DNA of 64,000 bases from a virus (Duplodnaviria > Caudoviricetes): the IMG/VR virus record IMGVR_UViG_2617270876_000003, positions 64,001-128,000 of that record. The stretch is one strand, 5' to 3'. Positions within the stretch are counted from its first letter, which is position 1. Each line of letters starts with the position of its first letter. The translations under genes were made by a program, and so were the position numbers. Positions 5,147 to 62,022 of the stretch are shown here, in pieces. The notes beneath the pieces are model-generated. The model saw only the letters and a program-made list of their open reading frames with translations, was not told the origin of the DNA and did not search any database.

Positions 5147-5353
5147 TTACTTAATAATATCAATCGAACTCAATGGAACTACATCCTCAATACCTTTAAT
5201 GTTGGTGCTCTCTGCCCATAAATAATCTACAACTGCGTTTTCTCGATAAAAGACTATTCCGGTTACAATATCGCCCGTATCAAAAGCCTTAAAACGCTCT
5301 CCGTTATTATCCCAATATACGTCTTCTTCAACTTTAAAATTAACCTCTTTCAT
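5147..5353 (-). CDS. small hypothetical protein (probable start MKEVNF)
   Basis: GGAGG RBS before the ATG at 5353, with a promoter at 5404-5432. Confidence 0.6.
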   Translation of the reverse strand: MKEVNFKVEEDVYWDNNGERFKAFDTGDIVTGIVFYRENAVVDYLWAESTNIKGIEDVVPLSSIDIIK

Positions 5354-5403
5354 ATGTATCATCCTCCAAATAAAATAGGTGGTAAATAACTTCACTAAAG
5401 TCA

Positions 5404-5449
5404 TTATACCACCTTGTAATTCTATTGTATATACTTATTTTTACTTTAT
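5404..5449 (-). promoter_or_regulatory. sigma-A-like promoter with upstream ATAAAGTAAAAATA box
   Basis: Minus strand: ATAAAGTAAAAATAAG-TATACA-17 bp-TATAAT with extended TG. Confidence 0.7.
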
Positions 5450-5955
5450 TAACTGAATCTAAGATGTTTTTTGTCCGTTATAAGTTCAACGCCATCAACA
5501 ATTTTTCCGGCCTTAGCATCAGCAAGCAGTGTTTTAGTATCTACTTTTGCTGGTTGCGGAATTTTATAAACTTCTGGGATCTTTTTCTCATCCAGCACAT
5601 TAATTGACGGAGGATTCTTTTGTAATCTCACCTTAAAGATGCCTGCATTAACTTTTTCAATGCCGTTTGCCTCAAGCAATGATTGCACATAAGCTTTAAT
5701 TCCGTCATATCTGCATTGCAATGTCTTGCGTTTCTTTGCAAGCCGCTCTTCTTCGTCTTTGTAGATTTTAATTTCTGATTCAATATTTTTCAATAACTTT
5801 GTTGTGTTCTCTACCTTTACCTCAATCATATCCTCAATTGACTCCAAACTGTCGAGCAATGTCTGAAGATTGTCATCATCGAGATCACCATCTAAAGCAT
5901 CCTCAATGTACTGATTGAGTAAAGTATATTTATCCATTAATTCGTATAATTTCAT
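5449..5955 (-). CDS. Siphovirus Gp157 family protein
   Basis: MKLYEL start, coiled coil (EEERLAKKRK) and KNPPSINVLDEKKIPEVY motif. Confidence 0.9.
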   Translation of the reverse strand: MKLYELMDKYTLLNQYIEDALDGDLDDDNLQTLLDSLESIEDMIEVKVENTTKLLKNIESEIKIYKDEEERLAKKRKTLQCRYDGIKAYVQSLLEANGIEKVNAGIFKVRLQKNPPSINVLDEKKIPEVYKIPQPAKVDTKTLLADAKAGKIVDGVELITDKKHLRFS

Positions 5956-6020
5956 TATTTTATTACTCCTTTATGTATATTTATTAATTAATTTTATGAT
6001 GAAACTTATGTTTTATCGGA

Positions 6021-6945
6021 TTATTTTTCTTTCTCTTTGTAATTAAAGTCATCAAGTATATTTTTTATATCTTGTGTTCGCTCATCTTTTCCATATCCAA
6101 GAGTGTAATTTTTGCTTGTTATTCCAAACTGAATAATTTTATGGTTCCCATTCGACCATTTTTCCTCTAGGACACTAAAAGAAGTGATTGTATTCTTCCC
6201 CTGTGAGAGATAAATTCGCTCATCTCTTTCTTTGTCTTTATTATAATTGTCTATGTATTCTTTAATCAGTCTTACTTCTTCCTCAAATTGAGGATTGTTG
6301 ATAAATCCAAATTTATTAGTGACTTTATGGTTATTTCCAAACATACTCGATTTTGCTCCGCATTTGGGGCATCCTGAAGGATAATAGCCATCACCCATCA
6401 TAGTAGGTTCCTTGGTCATCTCAGATTCTTGTATTTCAGTATTGCAACTATAACAAATCCTAATGTCATCTTTAAGATATTTTCCTAGTTTGTAATCATT
6501 CTTCATGATTTCAATTTTCAAATCATTATCAATAATATAATCAATTATTCTCTCTTTTACCTTCTTTTCTCTGCAACATTCAAGACACATATCACCATGA
6601 CCGGAAATGGTAATAAAACCCTCGTTGAACTTGATTCCGCTGTAGTAAATTGGTTTATCGAAATTCTTGTCGCCTTTGCTATGATACCGTCCTGATCGTG
6701 GATAACGCTTATAATCGGGTTTCTTGTCACAGTAACCACATGAACGGATGCTCTTATATGTCCATGTTAGTTTACCATTCTTTTCGGATTGCTTAATAAT
6801 CTCATTGATAATGGGTAGATCATCAAACCCATAGGATGATTCTTTTTTTGCTTCATCAATGATTTTTTGGGCAGACTCTGATACTTTGCCATCTAGCTGA
6901 AGTAATTCGTTGATTGTAAGTTCAATTTCAAACTTTTTAGAAATA
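6021..6945 (-). CDS. Cys-rich hypothetical protein (several CxxC)
   Basis: CGYC, CLEC, CYSC and CPKC motifs. The GGAGGAG RBS after site 6966 points to a start near ATT-TCT-AAA rather than 7049. Confidence 0.7.
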
Positions 6946-6972
6946 CTAACTCCTCCTTTTTGGTGATGAAAT

Positions 6973-9618: not shown

Positions 9619-9903
9619 TCATTCGCTCTCTTTCTTGTTTTTATTCTTATGCATTTCCTTGAATCTCTCACTTGCTGCCTGTTTTTGCTCATCGCTCATA
9701 TTTCTTTCTTTGCCTGTTCTAAAGGACACTTGATTAAACTTTAGATCTTTATAATAATGACCTCCATCCGAATCAACTTTATAGGCTTCTGCACCTACTT
9801 TACGCAATTTTGTAATGATTGTTTGCTGTAGTGTGTACACAGACCACGTTTTGCAGTCATCGTCGGAGCGAATTATTGTTTCTCGTTCTTCTGCTGTTGC
9901 CAT
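9619..9903 (-). CDS. hypothetical phage protein
   Basis: ERETII...W.VYT...RNMSDEQKQAASERF pattern typical of small Firmicutes phage proteins. Confidence 0.75.
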   Translation of the reverse strand: MATAEERETIIRSDDDCKTWSVYTLQQTIITKLRKVGAEAYKVDSDGGHYYKDLKFNQVSFRTGKERNMSDEQKQAASERFKEMHKNKNKKESE

Positions 9904-9945
9904 ATGTATTAATCATCCCTTCTGTTTAATGATGAAAGTTTCATT

Positions 9946-16200: not shown

Positions 16201-16317
16201 ATTTTCTCCTATTCTTAATATATTTTTGCTATATATAGTTTGTATAATTTGAGTAACATACTATATATAGATGTCAAATCACGTTAAAATCTGTCTTTTA
16301 TTCAAACCTATGTATTA

Positions 16318-17310
16318 TTACTTTACTTCTTCAAGTGCTTTTACTTCATCATTCAATTCATCAAGAACGCCAACCATCATTTCTACATGATTTTTCGTAA
16401 AGTCAGTGACCTTTTTACCTTTACCAAGTCCATTTTCAATAATTTCAGTAACAACATCGCCCTTATTATTTGAATGAAGAAGTTTACCAGCAGCAATAAT
16501 TTCGGCTTTGAGTTTTTCGAAATCCAAAACTTCTGATTTTAGTGTTTCTTTTTGCTCATTGTAAGATACTGCTTTAATCCCCTCTACTTCTTCTTGACGC
16601 TCAATGGCTTTAATAATTGCTTCCTCAAGAGCTTCTGCTGTAAATTCTTGTAGTCCAGTTTGGATGTAATCAAAACGACTACGAGCAAAGAATTTATCGG
16701 TCTCGGCAAGGAAAGCAGACGACTTAATGACTTGATTCTTTTCGTCTGTACCATTAGAACGAACATGAACAACAATATCACTATTATCGATGATTGGTGC
16801 CAGTGCTCTCTTATCTCCTTTAGGCCATACTTTACCTTCCTTATCTTCTGTCTGGTGGGCAATGAACACAACCGTAAATCCTGCACCGATCAACTTGTCG
16901 ATTTCTTCCCAGTATGCAGTTTCATATTCCTTCCATAGACCAAATCCATCTCGACCAGAAGCAATCGTATCAGAATCATATTTGTCGCAAATGAATTTAG
17001 AGCAATAACGTGCAGATGCTTCAACCTCATCAAAAATAATTGTCTGATAAAACTCTTTTGCTTTCTCTACTGTTGATTTATGTGTAAGCTGCTTATTAAC
17101 TTTTTTAAAATCAGACCAGTTATTGATAGCAGCGAATGGTACACCAGCAATAGCATTTAAACCTTTTTCAAAGCCAAGATAGTACGGTTTCTTAAAACGT
17201 GTTGCTTGCTTTGTCTTACCTAAGTTATTGCTTCCGTAAATCGTAATGATTTTTCCCTCAAGACCTTTTGCTACCTTGGAAACAACCGGATTAAAAATAT
17301 CTAGTGACAT
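16318..17310 (-). CDS. AAA_24-type ATPase (SPbeta YorG-like, Sak4-like recombination protein)
   Basis: YGSNNLGKT Walker A, FEKG, IIFDE Walker B, VVFIAH and FARSRF. Confidence 0.88.
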   Translation of the reverse strand: MSLDIFNPVVSKVAKGLEGKIITIYGSNNLGKTKQATRFKKPYYLGFEKGLNAIAGVPFAAINNWSDFKKVNKQLTHKSTVEKAKEFYQTIIFDEVEASARYCSKFICDKYDSDTIASGRDGFGLWKEYETAYWEEIDKLIGAGFTVVFIAHQTEDKEGKVWPKGDKRALAPIIDNSDIVVHVRSNGTDEKNQVIKSSAFLAETDKFFARSRFDYIQTGLQEFTAEALEEAIIKAIERQEEVEGIKAVSYNEQKETLKSEVLDFEKLKAEIIAAGKLLHSNNKGDVVTEIIENGLGKGKKVTDFTKNHVEMMVGVLDELNDEVKALEEVK

Positions 17311-17412: not shown

Positions 17413-18381
17413 TTAAAAAGGCAAATCGTCGTCCGAGATATCAATTGGCTTTCCTGCTCCGAACGTATTTTCATCAGGCGCAAACGGATCTTTCTTTGTG
17501 TTTGCACTAGAGAAGGGGTCATTATTATTGTTTCCACTGCCACCATTCCGCTGCTCTTTTGCCTTCTTCTTGTCTCTCATGCCTTGAATGTAAACTTCTT
17601 CACGATACTTTAGGGCTTTTTTAACCAGTTCTACATCAAAAGCATTTTTATCGTCTTCATCAAGGGGAACAGATCCACCTTCTACGAGGTATTCACGAAC
17701 TGTTTTGCGGTCAATCTTTTCTTGTGGTTCTCCAAAACCCACTTCAACTAGACGTTTTGTTACAATAGTTTGATTGACAATTTTGCCATGAACCGATACC
17801 GTCAACCCTTTCTCATAATTATTTGTAACGTAATTAACTGCGTGAGGATTAGCCACAACCACTTCAAAAGGAATTACCGATCCATTGTACATAGGAATGT
17901 AGCCTTTGATGATTGCCCGACCTGTTTCTTCTCCATCTTTTGTTTCCTCTTTAACATTTGCCACCATCATATCTAGCGAAAAAGTAGCTTGAGGATTAAA
18001 TTCTTCATTATCTTTTACTCGATTAATAAAATTGGAGTTGATTTTTGGATAAGATTTCAGTTTGTCGTCTTGTCCAATGTATTCATTGAGATCAACCTTG
18101 CCTTGAGTAACACGAACTCTGTCTCCCTCTTTTAGCTCTTCTTGAATTGTTTTGATTCCTTTGTAAATGGAATTAATATCTGTAGTGCCTTTTTTTAGTT
18201 TAAAGGAAAACACATTGATTGTATGGATAGAGTTTTCATCAACTTGAATATCAACCTCACCCTTAATCAGTTCCCGTCCATCTGGCATAGGCAGTTTATC
18301 TTCTTCAATACGAACTTCTTTTACGATACCTTCAATATGTACAACATTTTGCGCCTCTTGCAAAGTTTTTTCATTAGTCAT
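17413..18381 (-). CDS. YorF-like single-stranded DNA-binding protein
   Basis: Tandem OB-fold-like halves and an acidic SSB-type tail DISDDDLPF, adjacent to the YorG-like ATPase. Confidence 0.82.
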   Translation of the reverse strand: MTNEKTLQEAQNVVHIEGIVKEVRIEEDKLPMPDGRELIKGEVDIQVDENSIHTINVFSFKLKKGTTDINSIYKGIKTIQEELKEGDRVRVTQGKVDLNEYIGQDDKLKSYPKINSNFINRVKDNEEFNPQATFSLDMMVANVKEETKDGEETGRAIIKGYIPMYNGSVIPFEVVVANPHAVNYVTNNYEKGLTVSVHGKIVNQTIVTKRLVEVGFGEPQEKIDRKTVREYLVEGGSVPLDEDDKNAFDVELVKKALKYREEVYIQGMRDKKKAKEQRNGGSGNNNNDPFSSANTKKDPFAPDENTFGAGKPIDISDDDLPF

Positions 18382-18507
18382 TATTAATTTATCTCTCCTA
18401 TAATATGTATTATTTTAGTTTTTAAAAGATTATATTTTAGTTTTATCAGCGCGTTTATTGTTTAGGTGGACTTCGCATTGAACAAGTATCTATGCCCTCA
18501 CATCCTT

Positions 18508-19665: not shown

Positions 19666-19847
19666 TGTACTACCTCCTAAATATTAATCGTTTATGTAAT
19701 CGTGCAACTTCACACGTTATTTTAGTACTTCCTCGCTTCAATATCTTTATAAAAGTATTCTTTCAATTAATTATTATTTATTTTTATCTTATAAAGTAAT
19801 TCTATATATTAACGCCTCTAGAAAGCGATACATATTATCTTTAATCT

Positions 19848-19895
19848 CAGAATAACATACAATATATTAATTATCAATACTTATTTTTACTTTAT
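19848..19895 (-). promoter_or_regulatory. promoter with ATAAAGTAAAAATA box driving the recombination/SSB block
   Basis: ATAAAGTAAAAATAAGTA-TTGATA-17 bp-TATTCT. Confidence 0.7.
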
Positions 19896-19925
19896 AAGTT
19901 TAAGCCGAACTCTTTAGTCCGGCCA

Positions 19926-22420: not shown

Positions 22421-22454
22421 AAAAAAAAAGAAACGGGCTATTCTCCCGTTTCTT
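22421..22454 (-). terminator. terminator of the yopQ/yopR-like operon
   Basis: AAGAAACGGG/CCCGTTTCTT stem followed by a T-tract on the minus strand. Confidence 0.75.
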
Positions 22455-23442
22455 CGTCACCAATTAGTGGGTATAAAGATTCAATAGTTTCAATGTTTAG
22501 GAAGTCTGTTGTTAAGCGATTTACTCCTTTATAATCAATGTCAAACTTTCTACATACTTTCATTAGCTCTGTGCGTTCAAACTTGCCACTCTCACGATAA
22601 AGCTCATTTGCGTACTTCAACATACCCGATTTTCTGATATTAATTGGTGTTAAGTATGGGTAATCGAACCATTTGGCTATTTTTTTTATTCGTCTTGAGA
22701 CCAAGTTCGGTGGAGCATTATCTATATATTTTACATTTAATGCAACTGGTCTAAATACATAAGGAGACTCAATTAACTCTGCATCTCTAGCTTTAATAAA
22801 AACACTTTCGTTTCCGTTTGACTTATAATACACGGTTTGATGTGCAGCACTATATAGTAAGTTCATTAATTTTTGACTTATTTCTATTTCCCTTGTTTCC
22901 AGTGGCCCTTCTGCTGGTTTATTGCGAAGCGTAATATAACCATTTCCCCGGTCTACATCTTTCTCTAAGATATTTAATATTTCTGAGTATGCTCTTCCCA
23001 TTATCCCCTCGAATAAACACTGTATCAATGCAGAGTCTTGGGGATTGACAATGCGCCCAATAAACGAATTAATTTCTTCATCCGAAAACAAATATTTATT
23101 ACTTGTATCCACATAACTTTGTATTAATTCATCAGTTAGAGCTGCATCTAAAGGATTTATATTGTCAGCCCTAAGGTCTTCTTTAATTGCCCATCTTATA
23201 TATCTTCTAATTGTTAGTATCTGTGATTTACTTGACAAAAAAGTTGTTGGTGAAAGTAATTTCATTAACTGCCCAATTTCATACAAATTAAAATTAAATA
23301 AATCTTTGTTTAATTGCTCTTCTAAATAAGAGGCTCTTTTCAATACCCTAGAATAAGTATTGTATGTAGATTCCTCTAATCCCTTTAGATATCGATCTTT
23401 CTGGGGTTTATTAAAAAATTTATCTTCATATATTTTATTCAT
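22438..23442 (-). CDS. yopR: YopR/MrpR-like lytic-cycle repressor (degenerate tyrosine-recombinase fold)
   Basis: FN...K..YL, EE.LNKDLFNF, YI.WA, VNPQD..LI..LFEGI.G..YSE.L, YY.SNG and LTP.NI.KSG.L match SPbeta YopR as I recall it. The GxRxxE Arg and the HxLR His are substituted. Confidence 0.85.
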   Translation of the reverse strand: MNKIYEDKFFNKPQKDRYLKGLEESTYNTYSRVLKRASYLEEQLNKDLFNFNLYEIGQLMKLLSPTTFLSSKSQILTIRRYIRWAIKEDLRADNINPLDAALTDELIQSYVDTSNKYLFSDEEINSFIGRIVNPQDSALIQCLFEGIMGRAYSEILNILEKDVDRGNGYITLRNKPAEGPLETREIEISQKLMNLLYSAAHQTVYYKSNGNESVFIKARDAELIESPYVFRPVALNVKYIDNAPPNLVSRRIKKIAKWFDYPYLTPINIRKSGMLKYANELYRESGKFERTELMKVCRKFDIDYKGVNRLTTDFLNIETIESLYPLIGDEETGE

Positions 23443-36647: not shown

Positions 36648-37193
36648 TCATGCTATTTCGTAAATATGGTAACAATAGATTTCCTCAATTTCAGGTTCGT
36701 CATATAGATAATCCGCTTGAGAATTTTGCTTCCCGATATATTCACCCCACTTTTCCCATCTCCAACCACCGCTACTTGACTGATTCCTTTTTGTTGTTTT
36801 AGAAAGCCCCAAGACAAACTTACGATCATCTATTTCAAGTTCTGGATATTGGTCTAAGACTTGTTGATAGTCGTCGCAAACACCATAATTCCCTTTGCTT
36901 TCAACACCTTCATCCGAACATTTATTAAAATAATCCCAGTCGATATTACCATCTTCTGTCTTTCTAATTATCGAAAAACTGTCCCATCTTTCAATGATTT
37001 TATCTTCAGAGAACAATTCAATATAGTGATTGAAATTTAGTCCTGTATAATATATCCCCTTGGCGATTCGATGACAAAGCTCATCAGTTCCTTTTACTGA
37101 ATACTTTCGATATTCTTCATCACTATAATGCTCTTTTAATCTTTCATTACATTCATCAATCAAATATTGTTTAAATTCAATGTCGATTAGCAT
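36648..37193 (-). CDS. conserved hypothetical phage protein
   Basis: YGVCDD..QV...Q...GGWRW.KWG.YIG....Q.DYLYDE..IE....YHIY. Confidence 0.8.
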   Translation of the reverse strand: MLIDIEFKQYLIDECNERLKEHYSDEEYRKYSVKGTDELCHRIAKGIYYTGLNFNHYIELFSEDKIIERWDSFSIIRKTEDGNIDWDYFNKCSDEGVESKGNYGVCDDYQQVLDQYPELEIDDRKFVLGLSKTTKRNQSSSGGWRWEKWGEYIGKQNSQADYLYDEPEIEEIYCYHIYEIA

Positions 37194-37230
37194 TATTTAT
37201 TCATCTCATTTATGTATCTTTATCAAAGAC

Positions 37231-40904: not shown

Positions 40905-41156
40905 ACCCTTATTTACATTTCTCCTTTTAGATAATGTGATAAAAACATAATTTCATCTTAAGCAACTTCTTTCGTATGAATCATGATAATCCCTTTATCA
41001 CTCTTACACATTTCAATAAATAGCTTCATATCTCCTTCTTTTTCAAATTTGTATCGATTTACACTTAATTTACCGCAGATTTTTTCAATAATTGATACTT
41101 CAAACATTTTATGTGCCACCCTCTTGCTATGTATATTGTTCCTTTGTCTTGTATTA

Positions 41157-43802: not shown

Positions 43803-44816
43803 TTATTTGATACTTACACAGCCATGCTTATCAGTGATAAACCTTATTCCCTCTTCCAATTCCTTATTTTTAGTTCCGGTTGATTCATCTGTGAGAAGAA
43901 TTCTTCGTAAGGAATTTAAATCATTTATAAGTACTTGATTATCTTTTTTATATTTTTCCAACAATTTATTTTTTCTTTTAATTAATCCTTCTTGTTCAAT
44001 AATGGTGATTCTATTATTATTGACTTCCACCTCAAGACGGTTAACTTTTCCGTTTAATTCACTAACAATATTAAGTTGTTTAGAAATATTGCTTAATTTA
44101 TCATTAATGCTAATAAGCTCATCTTTATTTGATTCATAATTTTTGAAATTACCGTGGAAGCATTCATTATTTTCCTGCTGAAGCATTAAACCATTCTCAA
44201 CAATGAATTGGTTCAGTGAGCCATGTCTCTTGGTAATATAATGAACTTTTTGATATACATTATTTGGATTTCTATTCAACTCTTTTGCTGCATTTTTTAT
44301 CGCAGCCATTTTATTAATTCCAGTGTTTTCCTGGATATTCAATATTTTATTTAATAAGACTAAATCGGAATCTGCCCAAGCACCAGTAACAACCTCCTTT
44401 GACTCTTGAGAAGATTGCTCTTCAATATTTAATAAATAGTTTCTAACCTTGACTGAAACTTCACTATCTCGTAAAAGCATACCGATACGTAAAATTGCAC
44501 GTTTGGGCAATAATTTCACTACAAATTGCGAATTCGGTAGGGCTTTCTTCAACTTGAAGAAAGCTTCATCCTTACTGGTAATCGTATTTACACCATCACT
44601 TTCAAATTCATTTTTATGGCGGTTTAGAATAGTTGCAATAGTTTTATAATCAACCTCATAAAACTCTGCTGCCATTTTGACTGTCATATGTTCTTCATCG
44701 GGTAACAAACTTAACATCTTGACTTTTGATAAAACCCCTATTTTCTCTATGTATTGATCCCTAATACTTTTATCTTCAACAAAATTTTGCTCTACTAAAC
44801 TCAATACTGCTCCCAT
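43803..44816 (-). CDS. phage DNA-binding/antirepressor-like protein with a coiled coil
   Basis: KVK.L.LLPD....T..M.A.FYEV......R...E...DG...RAILRIGMLLRDSEV...VR.YLLN.E N-terminal domain. Confidence 0.78.
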   Translation of the reverse strand: MGAVLSLVEQNFVEDKSIRDQYIEKIGVLSKVKMLSLLPDEEHMTVKMAAEFYEVDYKTIATILNRHKNEFESDGVNTITSKDEAFFKLKKALPNSQFVVKLLPKRAILRIGMLLRDSEVSVKVRNYLLNIEEQSSQESKEVVTGAWADSDLVLLNKILNIQENTGINKMAAIKNAAKELNRNPNNVYQKVHYITKRHGSLNQFIVENGLMLQQENNECFHGNFKNYESNKDELISINDKLSNISKQLNIVSELNGKVNRLEVEVNNNRITIIEQEGLIKRKNKLLEKYKKDNQVLINDLNSLRRILLTDESTGTKNKELEEGIRFITDKHGCVSIK

Positions 44817-44840
44817 TATTGTTTATCTCCTTTTATGTAT

Positions 44841-45599: not shown

Positions 45600-46005
45600 T
45601 ATCGCTCCTCAACTACTTTATTTAATTATTATAACCAACTTCTGAAGATGTCCCAATACGTTCTCAATTAAATTAAAATTTGATCAAAATATTATTTATA
45701 GTAGGAATCATACAGAACTTTGATTGATTCATCATCCAGATGCTCGATTTTATCCCTAAATGTCTCCCTCAAATCAATCATAAATTCTTCGAAACTGGAC
45801 GTAGTATTTTCTGACTTCAATTCTTTAATATAATTTGTTAAAATTACTAATGGAAAATGATTAAGATTTCCTACTTGAACATGCTTCACGCTTTGCTGTC
45901 TCCAAACTATGTATGTATTCTCTAATCTTGACTATATTATACCATCCCGCCACAACAAACACAATGTATTTAATATTTATTTTTACCTTATACCTTCTCC
46001 CTCGC

Positions 46006-48345: not shown

Positions 48346-48714
48346 CTATTCTTCTTCAATAAAATTTCCCTCATCGTCAAAATCTTCTGAATTGATACTA
48401 TCAATAAAGATTTCTTTAAAGAATTGAATATCATCTTTATTAACAACTACGATTAATGCGTTGTTTTCTATTTTCACATAAATTTTCGCTTCATCAGTGC
48501 TAAAATCATACCCCGCTGTTCCACTTAAACTTTCCAAAACATCAACAGGAGCATAGAGCACAAGTTCATTTTGTGACCAATGATAAACGAGATGCTCTAA
48601 TTCTTCGCTTGTAAGATCGTAATAAGAATCAATATATCCTATTTGTTTGGATAAAAGTTTCTTACCTTCAGTTTGTATAAGGTCCATTTTTTCTTGAATA
48701 TTTTGAATGTTCAT
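48346..48714 (-). CDS. acidic hypothetical protein
   Basis: 122 aa with GGGAGG RBS. Confidence 0.7.
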   Translation of the reverse strand: MNIQNIQEKMDLIQTEGKKLLSKQIGYIDSYYDLTSEELEHLVYHWSQNELVLYAPVDVLESLSGTAGYDFSTDEAKIYVKIENNALIVVVNKDDIQFFKEIFIDSINSEDFDDEGNFIEEE

Positions 48715-48800
48715 TTAAATTCCTCCCGGTATATGTATGGTTTAATTTTACTACATTCTACTAGACAAGTCTGTAAAATCACTCTTTTACTTAGAAATGC

Positions 48801-49449: not shown

Positions 49450-49813
49450 CGTTATTCCTCCAAACATGTTATTTGAATCTTAGTATAACATGAAGCTATA
49501 AGAGCTTATAAAATGAGTATTTCTTTTTGTTATCTAACCACCATCAAAGATCCTTTTCCTGCTTCGAATTTATTTTTAAGATATTCACCGTACATCTTTA
49601 CATAATCAAGCTTTTCAAATTCATACATATTTGCACATGAGAACGAATTGTTGAATTCATATTTGAATTCTTCAAAAGACAATCCCGATTCAATTTCATT
49701 CAACGACTCTTGGATTCTTTTGTTCATATTTTTCATTTCAACCGCCTCCTATGTATTACCTTATGAACTAAGTATACATCAGAAGACGGTAATAGTCAAT
49801 ATATTATTTATTT

Positions 49814-51919: not shown

Positions 51920-54900
51920 TCAAGAAATATTTTGCTCTCCCCATGTTAAGCGTACAGATCCATTTTCATCATATTCTTTTGTAATAATACTACTAAATAT
52001 ATCTAAACTTATCCCAAATTCTCCGAATATCTCAGCATCCTCCTTATATTCACACTGTTTAACAAATTCATTGATCCGTTGTTTGGACATCAACAAAGCC
52101 AGAATATTCTGCTCCAAGGTATTTAAATAAGTTACAAAGTGGATCATTGTTTTATTCTTGCTGTTAAGTCTCGTAAAACGGCCTATATACTGCATCATAT
52201 TCGCAATGTTATATTGTAGACCCTCGCATATTACAACGTCACAAGAAGGGATATTGACGCTCTCAGAGAGACTCATCTGTGTAGAAATGAGCAATCCGTT
52301 TTCTGTTGCTTCAAATTCTTTTATAATCTCTTGACGCTTTTTAAATGGAGTTTCGCCTAATATCAAAAATATAGGTCGCTCTTTAAACTCAGTTCTTAAT
52401 TTATTGTAATAATAAGTTGCCGAATCAATAAATGTTGTTCCGATTGCTACTTTATCGCTATTTGCACTGTTAATAATTTTTACTATTTTTTTATATTTAT
52501 TCGGCTCCACCTTACCATCATATTCCTTCAATTTATGCGGAATAGAAACAGCTTTTTGTAGCAATTGTATCTGTTGAATAATTCTCAACATTGCATCGCG
52601 TCTATAGTTGCCAGACGTTCCATAATAGCCCCTAACAATGGAGTGGAACTCTTCCATAATTAATCTATATACTTCTTGTTCATTGTCATTCTGGCTTATT
52701 CTATGCGTCTTAAACTCGACCACATCTTTAGTCATGACATCAAACATGCTACGGACAATAATAGTTTTTTCAATAAGTTTAACAAGTTTGCTCGAATTCA
52801 TAATGTCTTGATTTCCTTTTTGAATTCCAAACACAGAAGTTTTTTTAGGAGAGAAACAAGAAGAAAAAACGCTTTGTTTGTATGCAGGAAAAGGATGTTT
52901 ATAATATTTATTATGTTCCTCTTTCCACTCTCCTGTTTTTTTATCCTCGGATAAAACAGTTTCACATTCACAAATACAATTTATGCTGCTACCGTAAAGG
53001 ATCATGAATTGTGAATACAATTCGTTAGCTGTATTTTTAGTTGGCGTTCCCGACATTAATAATTTATATGGTACTTTTTGAAATACATTGATGGTCGCCT
53101 TTGTTGTTTTTGTGTTTGGGTATATGCAGCGGTGACTCTCATCTAAAATGAAAGCAATTTTTCTGCCCTGCATCTTTATATATTTTTTGATATTTTTTTG
53201 ATATTTAACTAACATATTAAAAGATATTAAAACTATATCGTCAGGCTGAATATTGTGAATGTCTGATAATGTTTCTATTTTTTTATATGGAAGGTCATAG
53301 GATTCTAATCTATCCGTCCATGTCATTTTAATTGAAATACTGGAAGATACAATAAACGTATTTCTTATGCTATTATTTTCAATGAAATACTTCATCCACG
53401 TTATTCCTGCTTCTGTCTTTCCCAGTCCAACATTCCAAGCAAGCAAAGCCCGATCCTTTTGTAATATCTTTTGTATATCTTCTTTCTGAAAATTTTTAAG
53501 TTTTATAAATTGTTTTGAATTTTTATTATATAGCGTGAAGGCTTCAAGCCAGTCTGATATATATTCATTCTGTCCTATCTCCTTAAATGGCTTGCTTTGC
53601 TGAGTATGTGCTTTAATTTTTTTATTGAGTAGTTTTCTATATGTTTGATCTTCAAACGGGTATTCACCTTTTAAAATCATGTCATTAAAACTAACCTCTT
53701 TAACTCCAGTAAACTTCGATAAGTATATTTTATTTTTGTGTGAGTATCCTTTTAGTTTTAGACTGTTAGATTTCTTGACCAATTTAATACAATCATGCTC
53801 TACTCTGTGTTGATTTTTTAGTATTTTCTTCAACTTTGAAATAATCATATTCGGCGTTAACTTAGCATTAGACCATTCTTCCGCAGACATTCCCTCCGGT
53901 TTTACCTGAATTTTATATCTATGTAACATTTCACTACATTTTGCATAATGAATGCACGTTTTTTGATTTCTTTTAATGTCGAACAAAAGTTTATTAACTT
54001 TGAACTGAAAATCCTGCTCTTCTTTGGTATTACTATTTGCTGCTGCAATCTCATAAAATAGTTTCGCTTTTAATGTTTCCTTTTGTTGCATAACTGGTGC
54101 TATGTATTGAGTATGATATTTATCGGCTATCTCAGCAGAAAACTCACTAATTAATATTCCTTTATTACTGTACGGAATATCTGTTAAATGCCCACTTTTG
54201 CGCTGAAAGAATAATATTTTAGTTTTAAAATTATTTACTCCAACGTTTTTAAATACATCGCTAGGTAAATTTAATTGTAATAAAAAGTTAAATTTATCAT
54301 TAATCATTTCTATATCTATCTTGTTTGAAAATTCATCGGCAAGAAAAGTGTCTGGAACAATGATGCAAAATAGAGAGGAGGGTTTTAAGAGTTCGGCAGA
54401 TTTTAAACAGTAGTACATCTGACTTGTTACTTTCTTATTATCCCATTTGAAGCCCTCTATATTATACGGAGGATTTCCACAAATTAAATCGAAACGGGTT
54501 AATGGTGTATATTCCCGAATATCGCCTAACGTTGCGTTAACTTTAGGATATAAAAATTTTTGAACTTTGAAAGATTTAATGTCAATCTCATTTGTATAAA
54601 CATTCTCATGACACGGCAACCAGTTTAAAAAAGCACCATGACCCGCTGTAAAGTCTCCAATTATGTCGTGAATGGACGGTTTGAGCATCAAAGATAGGAA
54701 ACGGGTTAATTCATAAGGTGTATAAAATTGTCCATTTTCTATTTCACGTTTTGCGGAAGAAAATTCATGGAAGTTGGCATAATCACTAAAAGATAGCCCA
54801 TGTAAACCACCATCTCCAGAATAACATAAAAACACATGATTTTTAGAGATTCCATGCTTTTCTGTCAGATTGTTATCGATCAAATAAAGCACTTTTTCAT

Positions 54901-54961
54901 TTATTTCCTTTCTTTTATTTTGAGGAATAATAACGTTATTTAATTCATACATAATTGTCAC
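51920..54961 (-). CDS. N6-adenine methyltransferase-SNF2 helicase fusion (DarB-like)
   Basis: GQFYTP, DFTAGHGAF and GNPPY, then W.VGLGKT, ILDESH, MSGTP..N, SESVNIP and Q.IGRFTR. Confidence 0.88.
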   Translation of the reverse strand: MTIMYELNNVIIPQNKRKEINEKVLYLIDNNLTEKHGISKNHVFLCYSGDGGLHGLSFSDYANFHEFSSAKREIENGQFYTPYELTRFLSLMLKPSIHDIIGDFTAGHGAFLNWLPCHENVYTNEIDIKSFKVQKFLYPKVNATLGDIREYTPLTRFDLICGNPPYNIEGFKWDNKKVTSQMYYCLKSAELLKPSSLFCIIVPDTFLADEFSNKIDIEMINDKFNFLLQLNLPSDVFKNVGVNNFKTKILFFQRKSGHLTDIPYSNKGILISEFSAEIADKYHTQYIAPVMQQKETLKAKLFYEIAAANSNTKEEQDFQFKVNKLLFDIKRNQKTCIHYAKCSEMLHRYKIQVKPEGMSAEEWSNAKLTPNMIISKLKKILKNQHRVEHDCIKLVKKSNSLKLKGYSHKNKIYLSKFTGVKEVSFNDMILKGEYPFEDQTYRKLLNKKIKAHTQQSKPFKEIGQNEYISDWLEAFTLYNKNSKQFIKLKNFQKEDIQKILQKDRALLAWNVGLGKTEAGITWMKYFIENNSIRNTFIVSSSISIKMTWTDRLESYDLPYKKIETLSDIHNIQPDDIVLISFNMLVKYQKNIKKYIKMQGRKIAFILDESHRCIYPNTKTTKATINVFQKVPYKLLMSGTPTKNTANELYSQFMILYGSSINCICECETVLSEDKKTGEWKEEHNKYYKHPFPAYKQSVFSSCFSPKKTSVFGIQKGNQDIMNSSKLVKLIEKTIIVRSMFDVMTKDVVEFKTHRISQNDNEQEVYRLIMEEFHSIVRGYYGTSGNYRRDAMLRIIQQIQLLQKAVSIPHKLKEYDGKVEPNKYKKIVKIINSANSDKVAIGTTFIDSATYYYNKLRTEFKERPIFLILGETPFKKRQEIIKEFEATENGLLISTQMSLSESVNIPSCDVVICEGLQYNIANMMQYIGRFTRLNSKNKTMIHFVTYLNTLEQNILALLMSKQRINEFVKQCEYKEDAEIFGEFGISLDIFSSIITKEYDENGSVRLTWGEQNIS

Positions 54962-55925: not shown

Positions 55926-58127
55926 CTATGCAGATTGTTGATTATATCCGCAATATTCATTTGCAAACTTGGATGCAACTTGATTGGATAAAAATTCAAT
56001 TTCCATTTTACCGTTCTTTAAAAATTTAATTGTTTTTACCTTGCTTAACGTCTGCACTTCGTATTTATCATAATTATCTTTACTTCTTTCGTTGTTATAT
56101 CCGAAATATTTATTTGACAACTCTTCTTTAACATTTGTGTTGCCGTCTTCAAAATGTGATAGTGCCATTAAAATGGACTCATGCTTTCCGGTTAACCTAT
56201 ACTCTTTCCAGATTGAATCATGATAGGCAAAATGTCCGTCTAAGATCAATTTATTGTTACGTATAGTTATTTTGTCATTACTATAAAAAATGTCTTTTGC
56301 TTTGCTTTTTATCTCCTGTTCTGCTTTTTCCGTAAAGTTGAACCCGTCAAGTTGAATAAAAATCTCATCAATAATGTTATTATAGGTGATATCCTCCCCA
56401 TATTTATTTTTAACTTTATCCTCATCAATAGTAATGTTGTATTTTCTTTCAAAATAAGAGCAAACATACATAATAAATGCATTTTTTATATCACTAATAG
56501 CTTTTTCATAATCATGCTTGCTCATGCTGTAATAAAACGCCGTATTTTGAGCGTGAAAGTAATTCTCTGTTTTTTTACCGAATTTTTGCCCATGCTCTTT
56601 ATCTAAAATCGCAATTATCTGAAGTTGTGCATTAAATGTTTTATATGCCGCAATAGTCTTTTTATAAATTTCCTCTTGTTCATTGCAGAATTCCAGATCC
56701 TCGTTAGAAATTTTTTGCTCTGCTGTTATAGTGATGTTGTCAAACTTACTGAAAATATCATCATATGTATTAACCATTCCCTCAACCTCTTTCCCTTCTG
56801 TTTCTGTTGTTTCAGTTTGACTAAAGTTATAATGTATTACGTTGTCTTGCGCCTCTGTATTGCCTCCTGTTGCGGTTTGTTCTGGTTCTACCTCCTCTAT
56901 GCTGTCTACACTGTTATTGCCATTAATAAGACTCTGAGCGAATGCCAAACGTTCTTCTGTTTGTTTCGCCCACCATTTTCCTCCATAAGAAGACCAACGG
57001 AAACCATTTTCTTTTAATGATGTAATAATATCGCTAGAAGGTTTTCCGTTAAACTTTAATTCAATGCCGTTTTTCTCTTCGTTGATTGTAAGTGTAACCT
57101 CATTGCTGTTGTCGCTACCCCTATGTGCGCTTTCTGTTTCTTGGCTTGCTGTTGCTTCGGGTGTCTCAATCTGTGGAGCATTTGAAACAGTTTGTTTACG
57201 TGCTGTTTTCTTGAATACAGTCTTTTCTACATATTGCGTAACCTCTATAAACTCGATTACAGCAATGTGGCCTTTACTCAACAATTCATTAATACGGGTA
57301 ACAGATAAACTCCACATCTTATCGAAACTTTTAGATGGCTTATTGTTTTTGCCAAGCTTAGAGAACACACCGTTATTGATATATGTATATTTATTTCCTT
57401 TGCTTTTTCCGTGTGTATATCCAACTTTCATTACAATAGTGAAACCTTCTTTAATGTCTGCATCTGTTACGGCTGTGACGGCTTTTTCTACGGTTTGAAT
57501 GGTTTTAACGGGAACCTTGATAACTTCGGCCTGTAATGCGTCCGAATCGCTCAAAACCTTTTCTACGCGGCTAACAAATGCTGTGATTTTTTCCTCTTTC
57601 TGTTCTGCTGCTGTTTTCTCTTTATTTTCCCAATCATATGTATTAGTAGAAAATACTCCTTTACCTTTCGCAATAATCTGACCATCCTTTTCAATATGCC
57701 AGCTAGTACCTTTTGGATTAGCATGTGAAAAAGTTGGGTAAACCTCTTTAACCGTATACTCTGGTTCAACTCCTGCTTTCTCTTTTTCTTTTTCAATAAG
57801 TACAGCACAAGAAGCTTTTTCATTTTCAGTGCTTGCTGCATCGTTCATCATTGCGGTTAGTTTAGTGATACGTTCATTTGATACGGTTCTCTTGCTATTA
57901 TAAATATATTCTCTTTCTTCTTTACCAGAAAGAGAAAGATTATAATTACAAATGTCAATTAACAATACATAACCATTTTTAGTTGCTATGCCAGACCAAT
58001 CAGCAGGGTGATAATAATCAGTCATAGAGTCTGATTGATCAGGAGAATAACCAAATGCTTTCCAGCCACTTTCAACCAATTTATGCATGATTCTAACCTT
58101 TGCTTCTCTTTTATCACCGTAGTACAT
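55926..58127 (-). CDS. large polyvalent-type protein with a DUF4942-like C-terminus
   Basis: SDSMTDYY N-terminus, NEEKNGIELKF..KP......LK.NGFRWS....WWAKQ domain and KTIKFLKNGKMEIEF C-terminus, upstream of the MTase-helicase. Confidence 0.7.
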   Translation of the reverse strand: MYYGDKREAKVRIMHKLVESGWKAFGYSPDQSDSMTDYYHPADWSGIATKNGYVLLIDICNYNLSLSGKEEREYIYNSKRTVSNERITKLTAMMNDAASTENEKASCAVLIEKEKEKAGVEPEYTVKEVYPTFSHANPKGTSWHIEKDGQIIAKGKGVFSTNTYDWENKEKTAAEQKEEKITAFVSRVEKVLSDSDALQAEVIKVPVKTIQTVEKAVTAVTDADIKEGFTIVMKVGYTHGKSKGNKYTYINNGVFSKLGKNNKPSKSFDKMWSLSVTRINELLSKGHIAVIEFIEVTQYVEKTVFKKTARKQTVSNAPQIETPEATASQETESAHRGSDNSNEVTLTINEEKNGIELKFNGKPSSDIITSLKENGFRWSSYGGKWWAKQTEERLAFAQSLINGNNSVDSIEEVEPEQTATGGNTEAQDNVIHYNFSQTETTETEGKEVEGMVNTYDDIFSKFDNITITAEQKISNEDLEFCNEQEEIYKKTIAAYKTFNAQLQIIAILDKEHGQKFGKKTENYFHAQNTAFYYSMSKHDYEKAISDIKNAFIMYVCSYFERKYNITIDEDKVKNKYGEDITYNNIIDEIFIQLDGFNFTEKAEQEIKSKAKDIFYSNDKITIRNNKLILDGHFAYHDSIWKEYRLTGKHESILMALSHFEDGNTNVKEELSNKYFGYNNERSKDNYDKYEVQTLSKVKTIKFLKNGKMEIEFLSNQVASKFANEYCGYNQQSA

Positions 58128-58183
58128 TTTAAAACCTCCATAATATGTATTTAGTAACCGTGTCCCTCATTTGCTTATAATTT

Positions 58184-59256: not shown

Positions 59257-59321
59257 ATTATCAACTCCGATTAATATTTTCATCTTATAAAATCCGGTTT
59301 TTATCAAGCTCCTAAGAAAGA

Positions 59322-59651
59322 TTAAGCCGTAAAGCGTCTAACAACCACTTCGCAGTTAATTACTGAAACTTTCTTGTTCGTGTCGTTTTTATTCCATGCA
59401 TTTTCCTGTATATAGTTTTTGTTAATCAGCATGCTTCCAGTTGTTTTAATAGAATCCTCAACTTTCGCAATTGACATTGCATAGCTGACAACAGCATCTT
59501 TCAAAGTATCGTAACCATATTCCCAGGTTTGACCTTTTTCTTTAGAACACCATCCGTATTCTTCTTCTTTCCAAAACTCAACTTGATCGTTTTCCCACCT
59601 CTTTTTATTTTTAACCAGTTCAATATTAGATTTGCAATCAATATAACTCAT
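59322..59651 (-). CDS. hypothetical protein (probable start MSYIDC)
   Basis: The RBS AGGAG follows site 59684. Confidence 0.7.
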   Translation of the reverse strand: MSYIDCKSNIELVKNKKRWENDQVEFWKEEEYGWCSKEKGQTWEYGYDTLKDAVVSYAMSIAKVEDSIKTTGSMLINKNYIQENAWNKNDTNKKVSVINCEVVVRRFTA

Positions 59652-59734
59652 ATGTATCAACTCCTGTGATTGTATTAGTTTTGATAAAATTATCATTTGA
59701 TTGGATTGTCCAGAGGAGTCTCAAGACTCCTCTT

Positions 59735-60022
59735 TTAGTTTTTCATCATCCATTCAAGCGCTTTTGATGGATAGCCTTTAGTAAATATCACTTTCTTCTC
59801 GTCCCCATCATAAACTGTTAAAGTTCCCGCTCCATACATCGATTGGCTTGAAAAGCCCATACAAGATTCAAAAACTACTTTCTTTCCCGATTTAGTAAAT
59901 CCAGTTTGAATTGCATTCGTACCATCAAGTTTTACTTCGGTATACTTTGCACATTTCTCGCGTTCTTTTCTTTCTTGTGCTGCTGCTTTAATTCTTTCCG
60001 AACGTTCGTAATCCCATGTCAT
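59735..60022 (-). CDS. hypothetical protein (probable start MTWDYE)
   Basis: GGAGG RBS, promoter TTGTAT-17 bp-TATACT at about 60054-60082, and a terminator at 59711-59736. Confidence 0.7.
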   Translation of the reverse strand: MTWDYERSERIKAAAQERKEREKCAKYTEVKLDGTNAIQTGFTKSGKKVVFESCMGFSSQSMYGAGTLTVYDGDEKKVIFTKGYPSKALEWMMKN

Positions 60023-60723
60023 ATGTATTACCTCCGCTTCATTTGATAAATCAAGTATACCACACATTGTTGCTATATACAATACTTATTTATTTTTATC
60101 TTTTAAATTAACCTACCCATTGGATCAATATCCAGAACCAAATAATAACAGACACAGCCATGATTACTTTATGTTTGATACTCCATTTGTTTTCCTCTCT
60201 AGAGTCTCTGTTAATGATTCTGATGTCCATCTTACATTCCTCCTTATATTTGCATGATTATTTTTATCTTTGTTATAGCGGCTTCTGGGTGGCTTATATT
60301 AGGCGCTAACAACAATTTCAACGGTGTTACCTTGATAACTTACAACATCGTGCATACAACATGTGCAAAGCTCTAACACCTTAAGATTGTCGCCAGAAGT
60401 TTTAATGATTAAAGATCCGTCACGTTTAACAAGTTTGATTGTCTTATTATTCACTATGTATATTCTCCTATTTATTTTTATATTTATAAGGATTGGTCGA
60501 AACCTCTAAAACTTTATAAATACTCCCAATTGACTCTTGCAATGCACACTTTGCACTGCTTTCGGATGAAAAAGAGCCATAACGGAAACTCTTCACGGAT
60601 TTGAAACCTGTTTCTTTGTCTTCCACTAAAGCGACCCATGAGCATTCAGACATTTTAATCATTCTCCTTTTTTGGGCCTCTGACACATTGCATGATTGCA
60701 TCAGAGGCGTTTATATTTACTTT

Positions 60724-61458
60724 TTAGGCAGTAACAGCGGATTTAATATTAAACGTTGTGATGGGTGTTTCTGGGACTGCTGATAGGATATCGGTCAGAT
60801 AGTTATCATTAAAGCAAGCATAATTACCTTGAGTAACTGTCATAGATGGAGTTTCTTTAATAACCGTTTTAGTGATTGAGTCAATATCAACATTAATCCA
60901 GCCATCATATACAATAAAGTTTTCATAGGGCAAGATAGTGTTAGAGTAAAGAGATCTTTTCCGCTTTGGTTTATGAACAATTTTAAGCGATTCTTTGTAT
61001 TGTGCGTATGGTTTAACCTCAACATGGTCAATAACCGTTTGAATAGCAACAGGGAAACCAAAGTCAGTGAATTTAACTATTGTTACTTTTGTTTGAGGCT
61101 GAAGGGCTTCAACAGCTTCAGTAAACACAGATTCAAACGGAACATTGTAGCCATATTGACGAAGCAGAGTAGCCATATTTGTGCATCCTCGATGTTCTGT
61201 GAACTCGATGATATCAAGCGTAAGAGTGATATTATGAGTGTTCAAAGCGTCAAAGAACAGCACTTTAACACGTTGTTTTTCTGTGTCCGAATACTTTGAA
61301 TAATTAACACCTTCCGGTCTAACTTCAAAACAAGCATTTGCAAGAGTATCAGAGAGAACGTCAAATTTATTAGTAATGTACAGCAGATCAAAGTTAGAAA
61401 GAGATGGATATTCGTTTGCCTCTTCTACCGAGATTTTAGCAGCTACTTGATTTGTCAT
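60724..61458 (-). CDS. hypothetical phage protein
   Basis: 244 aa with AAAGGAG RBS. Confidence 0.75.
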   Translation of the reverse strand: MTNQVAAKISVEEANEYPSLSNFDLLYITNKFDVLSDTLANACFEVRPEGVNYSKYSDTEKQRVKVLFFDALNTHNITLTLDIIEFTEHRGCTNMATLLRQYGYNVPFESVFTEAVEALQPQTKVTIVKFTDFGFPVAIQTVIDHVEVKPYAQYKESLKIVHKPKRKRSLYSNTILPYENFIVYDGWINVDIDSITKTVIKETPSMTVTQGNYACFNDNYLTDILSAVPETPITTFNIKSAVTA

Positions 61459-62022
61459 TATAACCGACTCCTTTAATATGTATTAGTACCCATAATGGAT
61501 ACTTAATTTATTACTTAAATTATTTTTACTTTATTAGCGAAGAATCAGACAACCTACGATTAATTTATTTTTGAGTGATTGCTTACGATCCCATTTACTT
61601 TTGAGTACTGCCAGTTGTGATTGAGACATTAATTATCGACTCCTTTGGAATAGGTTATAATGAAATAGTGAATATGTATTCCTTAACCTTGATATAAGTA
61701 TAGCACAGATTGAGTTATGTTTGCAATGATTTATTTATTTTTATTATATAAATAAGAGGCCCATTCTTAGTGAATGAACCTATGTAAAGAGATGTTAAAT
61801 TTTGCATTGGAACGGAACGTTCCTAATGCTCACACGCGACACGCTTGCGTGTTTAGCGTGTGAATTCTTTTGATCTTTAGTTTATCTTTGAACATTAGAA
61901 ATAGCCAGTTTAACAAGTAATAACCCTTATTATATAAAGGTTTTACAAATAATTTCATATTAAATTTTGTCAAATTTGGCTTTATAATATATCTTTATTA
62001 TATCTCTCTTTTTGACAAAATT

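Follow-up and report, generated by a model that had tools for sequence, protein, structure and literature searches.

A probable MazF-type RNA word enriched on the sense strand and around the ribosome-binding sites of a giant SPbeta-like prophage

Why should one seven-letter word recur beside so many ribosome-binding sites (RBSs) of a single phage genome? The question arises from a 64,000-nucleotide stretch of tailed-phage DNA (Caudoviricetes; IMG/VR record IMGVR_UViG_2617270876_000003, positions 64,001 to 128,000), referred to here as the window. An earlier note made from its sequence had listed 16 copies of plus-strand TATGTAT, AUACAUA in the mRNA, lying just 5' of the Shine-Dalgarno (SD) sequence or between the SD and the start codon, and had proposed that early phage mRNAs carry MazF cut sites as a shut-off or lysogeny switch. 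The observation proved to be real, strong and replicated. We consider AUACAUA to be probably a MazF/EndoA-type site, U^ACAUA with a preferred 5' A, which has accumulated by selection on the transcribed strand and is densest on the flanks of the SD.

The window corresponds to G000:C1:4296714-4360713 of the host chromosome and lies within an island at G000:C1:~4232500-4428500 (window -64 kb to +132 kb). The island is about 196 kb long and has 33% GC, 17 points below the 50% of the 5.87-Mb host genome, and its sense strand is A-rich. Its genes run on the minus strand over about 135 kb (the left arm, in which the whole window is included) and then on the plus strand over about 60 kb. Because nearly all genes of the window are on the minus strand, copies of TATGTAT on the plus strand read AUACAUA in mRNA.

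Abundance, strand and word specificity

TATGTAT occurs 72 times on the two strands of the window, 57 times on the plus and 15 times on the minus strand, and none of 100 dinucleotide shuffles reached this number (18.6 ± 4.3, maximum 29). Over the left arm, 136 sense copies of ATACATA were counted against 23-33 expected under Markov models of order 0-3 and 60 under order 4, and the word ranked first among 14,350 heptamers under a maximal-order Markov model. The reverse complement occurred 21 times on the left arm, which equals expectation. The strand of the motif switches where transcription switches between the arms of the island, and the sense copies of the whole island number 168 against 34 expected (4.9x). 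Genes that run opposite to the direction of their arm total 3,081 bp and hold no sense and one antisense copy, too little sequence to separate transcription from arm orientation.

The enrichment is confined to a narrow set of words. Of the 21 single-mismatch variants of ATACATA, 15 did not exceed 1.0x and a further three stood at 1.1-1.3x, which leaves GTACATA (2.1), ATAAATA (1.6) and ATACATC (1.5) as exceptions. Words of similar composition remained near 1x (ATATATA 1.0, AAACATA 0.7, ATACAAA 1.0), and heptamers in which UACAU is followed by C, G or U ranged from 0.3x to 1.5x in the island. The bases beside the heptamer showed a weak preference only, for A before it (0.60) and T after it (0.48), and no conserved flanking sequence or second element was found around the island copies. 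Nor did any Rfam family reach its gathering score in the window. AUACAUA is A followed by UACAUA, so that the sense-biased copies place the full hexamer on the RNA strand.

Coding sequences (CDSs) share in the excess. Across all 338 called genes of the island, CDSs contain 105 copies, divided among the three frames as 20/40/45 and distributed evenly along gene length, whereas synonymous shuffling gives 40.1 ± 5.3 (maximum 55 in 300) and codon-order shuffling 22.2 ± 5.2. The reverse complement within CDSs was observed 25 times against 23-26 expected. In the window, the 57 sense copies comprise 29 in CDSs, 19 flanking RBSs and 9 in other non-coding DNA.

Placement around ribosome-binding sites

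Within the 45 nt upstream of the 338 starts, we counted 40 copies against 3.5-3.7 expected from position-specific composition, distributed over four zones:

SD-start spacer: 13 observed, 0.4-0.6 expected
SD: 0 observed, ~0.03 expected
Just 5' of the SD: 24 observed, 1.7-1.9 expected
Further upstream: 3 observed, 1.2-1.4 expected

Copies in the two SD-flanking zones stand at 37 of the 338 starts (about 11% of genes), ATACATA is the most frequent heptamer in both of these zones, and 8 of the 13 spacer copies in the island read AUACAUAUG. The starts were called with our own simple gene caller, which limits how firmly this placement can be read; at the 16 RBS sites of the earlier note, an SD and a start codon are also visible by eye. 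The other sense-strand intergenic DNA, 12.1 kb in all, contains 19 copies in the sense and 2 in the antisense orientation, and at that density the RBS flanks would be expected to hold 11.1 copies rather than 37 (Poisson P = 8e-10).

The strand specificity and positional constraint described in the earlier note are thus both upheld, as is the enrichment in leaders for which it had suggested a count against CDSs, and CDSs turned out to be enriched as well. Its association of the heptamer with RBSs stands in that RBSs are the densest places, and was drawn too narrowly in that about half of the sense copies in the window lie inside genes, in all three frames. AUACAUA is more than an RBS feature, yet the RBS is its hot spot. 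All 16 RBS coordinates were recovered, six in the spacer or over the start codon and ten immediately 5' of the SD, at a distance of 17-29 nt from the start. As for the copies said to lie in leaders, 16309 and 61673 do occupy longer non-coding stretches, and three RBS copies had been omitted (35987, 41128 and 45912). The copies are listed below in window coordinates, with d as the distance in nt before the start where given.

5353-5359 (-): AUACAUA over the start codon (AUACAUAUG), separated by 4 nt from the SD (ggaggaug), gene 5147-5353; d = 6
9903-9909 (-): AUACAUA over the start codon, gene 9619-9903; d = 6
34979-34985 (-): AUACAUA between the SD (gaggagga) and AUG, gene 34159-34977; d = 8
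59651-59657 (-): AUACAUA over the start codon, gene 59322-59651; d = 6
60022-60028 (-): AUACAUA over the start codon, gene 59735-60022; d = 6
60455-60461 (-): AUACAUA between the SD (aggaga) and a GUG start, gene 60299-60454; d = 7
5972-5978 (-): AUACAUA directly 5' of the SD, gene 5449-5955; d = 23
18404-18410 (-): AUACAUA 5' of the SD, gene 17413-18381; d = 29
31512-31518 (-): AUACAUA directly 5' of the SD, phage MazF gene; d = 17
35987-35993 (-): AUACAUA 5' of the SD; absent from the earlier list
37211-37217 (-): AUACAUA 5' of the RBS, gene 36648-37193; d = 24
41128-41134 (-): AUACAUA 5' of the SD, gene 40958-41107; absent from the earlier list
44834-44840 (-): AUACAUA after the upstream stop codon (UAA) and before the SD, gene 43803-44816; d = 24
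45908-45918 (-): two overlapping AUACAUA (AUACAUACAUA) 5' of the SD, gene 45692-45889
48732-48738 (-): AUACAUA 5' of the SD, gene 48346-48714; d = 24
49750-49756 (-): AUACAUA abutting the SD (AUACAUAggagg), gene 49530-49736; d = 20
58144-58150 (-): AUACAUA after the upstream stop codon and before the SD, gene 55926-58127 (733 amino acids, aa); d = 23
61477-61483 (-): AUACAUA 5' of the SD, gene 60724-61458; d = 25
16309-16315 (-): AUACAUA in a longer intergenic stretch, immediately past the stop codon that ends gene 16318-17310; the next start is 115 nt downstream
61673-61679 (-): AUACAUA in the long leader or intergenic region 61459-62022, 221 nt before the next start

The sense strand also carries the reverse word, UAUGUAU, twice, at 19828 and 19928, 100 nt apart. 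These two copies lie in and at the edge of a gene-free stretch of about 260 nt, 19666-19925 (-), a possible place for a small RNA complementary to the motif, although no Rfam match was obtained there.

Related prophages and candidate enzymes

To what kind of element do these genes belong? Pfam and tblastn comparisons identified a Pol III alpha-type polymerase, NrdD, a RecD2-type helicase, a terminase and a YomG-type tail protein (YomG_N) in the island, and a large serine recombinase (542 aa) lies at its left edge. SPbeta proteins searched against the island by tblastn matched for YonO (E = 6e-23), YopR (3e-25), YopQ (7e-32), YopP (2e-25) and YonR (2e-15). The core genes of the SPbeta family are therefore represented by YonO, YopP/YopQ/YopR, the YomG-type tail protein, the Pol III alpha-type polymerase and the large serine recombinase, and judged by this gene content the island is a giant SPbeta-like prophage. 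AimR, YosL, YopM and YopN gave no tblastn match at E <= 0.01 in the island, a threshold that distant homologues could escape; AimP and AimX, too short or unavailable, fell outside this comparison. Related prophages of 154-173 kb each, with 55-63% amino acid identity, were found in Paenibacillus barcinonensis, P. illinoisensis and P. medicaginis (G001 to G003), and since the relatives sit in three species of this genus, the host is most likely a Paenibacillus. No match to 12 kb of the window was obtained when the phage collection was searched by megablast.

The pattern recurs in these three relatives. Their left arms each carry about 10 sense copies per 10 kb, the strand flips at the divergence point, and the head of the right arm shows a burst of copies in 3 of 3. 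With the same gene caller, the spacer zones hold 9, 7 and 3 copies against 0.27-0.45 expected and the zones 5' of the SD hold 10, 11 and 9 against 1.2-1.5, or 19 against 1.1 and 30 against 4.0 when pooled. In this island, the head of the right arm, where motif density bursts and then falls, is also the position of a distant YonO homologue (925 aa, 25% identity, E = 6e-23, without a Pfam match; L007:17097-19874 (+), window +72384 to +75161, outside the window), and the YonO-type late block has the lowest motif density of the island. When the copies 5' of the SD are pooled from the four Paenibacillus phages, the cut would fall beyond the upstream stop codon in 42 of 54 and within the upstream gene in 6, and the remaining 6 have no upstream gene within 200 nt. 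Enrichment, specificity of strand, word and position, conservation within the lineage and the presence of both a host and a phage enzyme are all directly supported.

Comparison with SPbeta separates the hexamer from the pentamer. In each of the five phages tested (SPbeta included), TACATA is enriched 2.2-2.9x, whereas TACAT with C, G or T as the next base does not exceed expectation (observed/expected 160/192, 171/179, 173/178, 131/140 and 108/124). SPbeta itself shows 2.8x enrichment of TACATA and no excess of TACAT[CGT]; its early genes contain 71 TACATA against 31.1 ± 4.8, and 46 TACAT without a following A against 52.7. The UACAU pentamer named in the earlier note as the MazF target was accordingly not the enriched unit; only words ending in UACAUA are, in agreement with the revised EndoA site described below.

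The Paenibacillus phages go one base further. Depending on the base 5' of TACATA, enrichment in these four phages is 4.0-5.6x for A and 0.8-2.2x for C, G or U, and in SPbeta it is 3.7 for A, 3.3 for G, 2.6 for U and 0.9 for C. The share of TACATA with a 5' A is 57-66% in the four phages against 43% in SPbeta (Fisher P = 5e-5). CDS copies share the preference (84 of 137 left-arm CDS copies of TACATA have a 5' A), so it is not caused by UAA stop codons. A preference stronger than that of SPbeta suggests that something beyond the plain EndoA hexamer is selected. The preference is a property of the enriched word and no proof of an altered enzyme specificity.

The EndoA literature, cited throughout from the portions of each source available to us, supplies the 6-nt specificity, the repression through a site in the 5' untranslated region (UTR) and the role of MazF in SPbeta-family phages. 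MazF/EndoA of B. subtilis had for years been regarded as specific for UACAU, and Rend-seq data show that it cuts U/ACAU only when A follows, a signal lost in an ndoA deletion (Taggart et al. 2025, PMC11780869). The requirement for A after UACAU is mirrored by the enrichment in 5 of 5 phages. A preprint (10.64898/2026.08.06.743204) reports that the MazF enzymes of B. subtilis and L. monocytogenes cut UACAUA only and that S. aureus MazF prefers it, that one UACAUA in the 5' UTR of a green fluorescent protein (GFP) reporter is enough for MazF-dependent repression, and that co-cistronic neighbours of MazF targets are lowered too. According to the same source, MazF is conserved in Paenibacillus, UACAUA is rare in the 16S rRNA of MazF-encoding species, and in B. 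subtilis the hexamer occurs in about 15% of MazF-nonresponsive genes against 40% of the repressed set. For phages, an excess of MazF sites, counted as UACAU in open reading frames (ORFs), has been described in phi3T and SPbeta transcripts, and MazF dependence in SPbeta has been established experimentally (Guler et al., 10.1101/2023.04.27.537455). Lysis by phi3T needs MazF to be blocked by AimX or YosL, and phi3T_93, the counterpart of SPbeta YopN (SroB), binds MazE, frees MazF and favours lysogeny (Zamora-Caballero et al. 2024, PMC10769878).

Both a host and a phage enzyme accompany the heptamer here. The host chromosome contains an operon of alr, a ribbon-helix-helix (RHH) antitoxin and MazF, and this MazF is about 89% identical to B. 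subtilis EndoA (13 mismatches in 116 aa), an identity from which we infer specificity for UACAUA and hence a cognate enzyme. None of the nine host 16S genes contains UACAUA, and one UACAU is present in each. The phage also encodes a MazF homologue, as the earlier note had said, whose surroundings are as follows:

31022-31501 (-): homologue of MazF/PemK-family endoribonucleases, phage-borne and solo, 159 aa, with the MazF domain spanning residues ~34-145 (Pfam PF02452, E = 2.7e-25)
31522-31549 (-): best sigma-A-like promoter match upstream of the MazF gene, TTGAGA-16-TATAAT, 11/12 (consensus match only)
31650-32180 (+): Myb-like DNA-binding gene, divergent from the phage MazF gene and beside it in 4/4 prophages
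30744-30977 (+): Cro/C1-type helix-turn-helix (HTH) gene, downstream of MazF on the opposite strand, kept in 1/3 relatives
22438-24764 (-): homologues of YopR (master repressor, SroF) and YopQ (SroE), marking the lysogeny-management region (local tblastn, E = 3e-25 and 7e-32)
G001:C2:304385-304741, G002:C3:326036-326368 and G003:C31:215042-215401: phage MazF copies in the relatives

The ORF at 31022-31501 has the fold and motifs of the PemK/MazF family. Its closest solved relative is B. subtilis EndoA (4MDX, E = 3e-26), it is 48% identical to the host MazF, and it bears an N-terminal extension of about 30 residues. The motifs QxGxRP and P-[IV]-T-S, which we take to hold the catalytic Arg and Thr, are kept in 4 of 4 and 3 of 4 phage MazFs, respectively (G003 has P-I-S-S), and the phage protein differs from EndoA in the loop after the second motif. 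These features make it a candidate modulator or trans-acting factor. In each of the three relatives, a MazF homologue lies on the same contig 4-12 kb from the related locus, in addition to a chromosomal copy. The phage MazFs of the relatives are 41-48% identical to the copy in this phage and the chromosomal MazFs of the same four hosts are 91-92% identical among themselves; this faster divergence suggests an arms race or a change of role. SPbeta has no MazF.

The phage MazF appears to be without a recognisable partner. Pfam found no antitoxin-type domain in the 6 neighbouring ORFs, which leaves room for a novel antitoxin, and a search for MazE-like ORFs in the island found none (best E = 0.5-0.8), so that no adjacent cognate antitoxin was seen. 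The other neighbours of the gene are small ORFs without assigned function. The gene lies about 6 kb upstream of the YopQ and YopR homologues on the same strand, and the AUACAUA at 31512 lies 3 nt after the -10 hexamer of the sigma-A-like match. Given the predicted start, the 5' end of the primary MazF transcript (window 31440-31660) would resemble a MazF cleavage product.

A third MazF-family gene was noticed in the host chromosome (G000:C1:3303007-3303339; L057:1342-1863). It encodes 173 aa with a long N-terminal extension like that of the phage copy, adjoins a PIN-domain protein, and is 34% identical to the phage MazF and 41% to the chromosomal MazF.

Reading of the heptamer

If AUACAUA is a MazF/EndoA-type site, its placement would have the following consequences. 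Once MazF activity is freed, through release of the host EndoA orthologue from its MazE antitoxin, through the phage solo MazF or through both, the polycistronic phage mRNAs would be cleaved at the U-A bond. Cleavage just 5' of the SD would detach the cistron from the upstream RNA and leave a 5'-OH end a few bases before the SD, and a cut in the spacer would part the SD from the start codon. In both cases expression of the cistron would fall, and no ribosomes would be trapped on an incomplete coding sequence. The phage programme would thereby be hypersensitive to MazF, which would act as a post-transcriptional gate on lytic development, as in the lysis-lysogeny decision of phi3T and SPbeta. 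The idea of MazF cut sites as a lysogeny switch agrees with the published work on these two phages, as far as the available portions of that work extend, and its cleavage part is conditional here.

Which enzyme would read the site is a separate matter. The host EndoA orthologue is no less likely to be the reader than the phage MazF, since a near-invariant host enzyme together with a conserved word makes reading by host MazF the simpler account. The phage MazF may be a second reader with a requirement for the 5' A, or, by analogy with phi3T_93, an activator that titrates MazE. Overall, the MazF idea of the earlier note is partly supported: it was right in kind, with the corrections that the unit is a hexamer with a 5' A, that sites occur in genes too, and that host MazF is at least as likely to be involved.

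Several results weigh against the reading as a MazF-type site, or narrow it. At orthologous genes, the RBS motif was kept in 0 of 9 comparisons involving 4 window genes, for which start positions are approximate; this points to a property of the lineage with turnover of sites rather than to a set of conserved operators. The second operator offered by the earlier note as another option finds no footing, either in flanking conservation or at orthologues, and we rejected gene-specific operators on the same 0/9. In SPbeta, the Bacillus phage examined for RBS placement, that placement is weak (TACATA in the spacer 3 against 0.44, 5' of the SD 5 against 2.6), so RBS flanking is not general among phages rich in MazF sites. 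The strong 5'-A preference of the Paenibacillus phages does not match the published absence of a base requirement 5' of the U. In the 5,944 called host genes, TACATA is at 528 against 606 (0.87), close to TACATC (0.84) and TACATT (0.90), and ATACATA at 176 against 176, which shows neither a 5'-A-dependent effect nor hexamer-specific avoidance. Avoidance of the site by the host had been a candidate on the strength of a 600-kb sample (TACATA 31 against 59), which was unrepresentative and was overturned by the genome-wide count. An exemption of structural genes likewise fails as a property of the lineage: TACATA stands at 13 against 11.4 in this island, 28 against 12.9 in G001, 25 against 13.4 in G002 and 8 against 5.3 in G003, where the exemption is weak. 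Restriction to early mRNAs, as the earlier note had it, therefore holds in this island and fails in two of the three relatives, and is no rule of the lineage. The predicted start of the MazF-gene transcript would fall inside AUACAUA, so that this copy may be truncated in the RNA. Finally, the four Paenibacillus phages form one lineage, in which phage MazF, 5'-A preference and RBS placement co-occur as a single evolutionary observation, and cutting of AUACAUA in this phage, the MazF responsible and the consequence are points that we infer from sequence.

Other explanations fare less well. Reading mainly by the phage MazF, with an evolved 7-nt specificity for AUACAUA and a self-contained shut-off of transcripts independent of host MazF, seems rather unlikely to us. 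It would account for a 5'-A preference specific to the four MazF-carrying phages and lower in MazF-less SPbeta, for the lack of any 5'-A-dependent effect in host genes, for retained motifs beside an altered loop, and for the conservation of MazF in 4 of 4 prophages. Yet the same word is enriched in all four although their MazFs have diverged to 41-48% identity with this copy and the host enzymes have hardly changed; moreover, neither the Pfam survey of the neighbours nor the MazE-like search of the island found an antitoxin, and the four phages again count as one evolutionary observation. It is improbable that AUACAUA is bound by some other factor that occludes the RBS, such as a repressor like T4 RegA or a small RNA whose seed is UAUGUAU, and that the likeness to MazF sites is coincidental. 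Sites on both sides of the SD, where binding would block initiation, and an exact 7-mer sharper than the published 6-mer would suit such a factor; a repressor, however, needs no sites inside genes, where copies occur in all frames at 2.6x the number given by synonymous shuffling. No candidate for such a factor came to light, the Rfam search of the window gave no family, and the rule of A after UACAU also holds in SPbeta, where MazF dependence has been established by experiment.

A signal at the DNA level that is co-oriented with transcription, either a promoter or initiator for the YonO-type RNA polymerase or a polar motif linked to replication, would be strictly strand-specific, occur in all frames and flip with the arm, as AUACAUA does, and the copy at 31512 lies at the predicted start of a sigma-A promoter match. 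We nevertheless regard it as very improbable. A transcript begun at any of the 13 island copies between the SD and the start or over the start would lack its RBS, and the density is lowest in the YonO-type late block; the genes on the opposite strand, only 3 kb, are too few to part transcription from arm orientation. The promoter version was rejected because of these spacer copies and the lack of flanking conservation or of a second element. That the heptamer has no function at all, and simply results from an A+T-rich composition, from codon usage or from selection that keeps RBSs unstructured, is scarcely credible. The low GC content and A-rich sense strand of the island and the A/U-rich RBS flanks would favour such a by-product, but Markov models up to order 4, synonymous and codon-order shuffles and position-specific composition all fall short of the counts, words of similar composition are not enriched, and the reverse complement is at expectation.

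How much of the MazF-type site reading is new? The general phenomenon and its link to lysis-lysogeny are already published for Bacillus phages; the RBS flanking, the 5'-A preference and the phage-borne MazF are new. A search of literature listings, supplements excluded, returned no prior report of these three features, and 'ATACATA' together with phage gave primers and unrelated matches among the matches listed. The string AUACAUA does occur in the literature as d(AUACAUA), a substrate analogue for crystals of E. coli MazF, which we set aside as a coincidence. With phi3T and SPbeta, as described by Guler et al., the present system shares the phage family, the core word UACAU(A) on the mRNA strand and a host enzyme of the EndoA-orthologue type. 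In the available portion of that study, the count covers ORFs only and is silent on position, whereas here the word is densest on both flanks of the SD, at 10-30x over composition. Further differences are the strong 5'-A preference, the phage-borne MazF, the lack of detectable AimR, YosL, YopM and YopN, the likely Paenibacillus host and the prophage size of about 196 kb.

With the EndoA regulon of B. subtilis, the phage has in common the strict A after UACAU and 16S genes free of the site, and the regulon adds the sufficiency of a single 5'-UTR site. In contrast to host sites, which mark a narrow set of genes, phage sites are on most transcripts, at about 1 per kb; a 5'-A rule or a preference for RBSs is not reported in the parts of the regulon studies available to us. 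The comparison with phi3T_93/YopN (SroB) is of another kind. As far as the accessible account goes, that protein plugs into the host MazE-MazF system, promotes lysogeny and sits in the lysogeny-management region upstream of YopQ/YopR, and the phage MazF is likewise upstream; the protein here is a true PemK/MazF homologue with its motifs rather than a mimic.

The T4 endoribonuclease RegB is a precedent for a cut programmed by a phage at the RBS of many early mRNAs for post-transcriptional shut-off, and it cuts inside the SD (GGAG). The enzyme family is different, and whereas RegB cuts within the SD, the SD zone here is free of copies and the sites flank it.

A fuller scheme, which we regard as doubtful, is that the lineage has internalised the MazF switch. 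The mimic SroB (YopN/phi3T_93) would have been replaced by a fast-evolving solo MazF held in check by host MazE, which would either cut AUACAUA with 7-nt specificity or titrate MazE. Sites would have been placed at intercistronic junctions, after the stop and before the SD or between the SD and AUG, and would allow cistron-by-cistron shut-off without non-stop mRNAs.

SPbeta-family phages are a model for the arbitrium-controlled lysis-lysogeny decision, and recent work puts host MazF at the centre of that decision. The present locus extends MazF-site richness to another host genus and to much larger prophages, and it offers testable features in the SD-flank rule (about 11% of genes, four phages), the 5'-A extension and a phage MazF for which no antitoxin was found. 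RNA oligonucleotides NUACAUAN could serve as substrates to distinguish host from phage MazF by the 5' A. If the MazF-type site reading is true, the virus would write a host-type RNase code into its own RBSs and make its expression conditional on toxin-antitoxin status, and the signature (sense-strand UACAUA excess together with an RBS-flank index) would help to find other such phages. The RBS-flanking rule and the phage-borne solo MazF are most worth experiment.

Two further genes of the window deserve mention. The 733-aa protein of gene 55926-58127 (-) belongs to no Pfam family and is 55-63% identical across the three Paenibacillus prophages. A helicase of 1010 aa at window 51920-54952 (-) shares 41.5% identity with a putative helicase from Clostridium phage D-1873 and about 36% with Tenacibaculum jumbo phage helicases, an unexpectedly wide spread.

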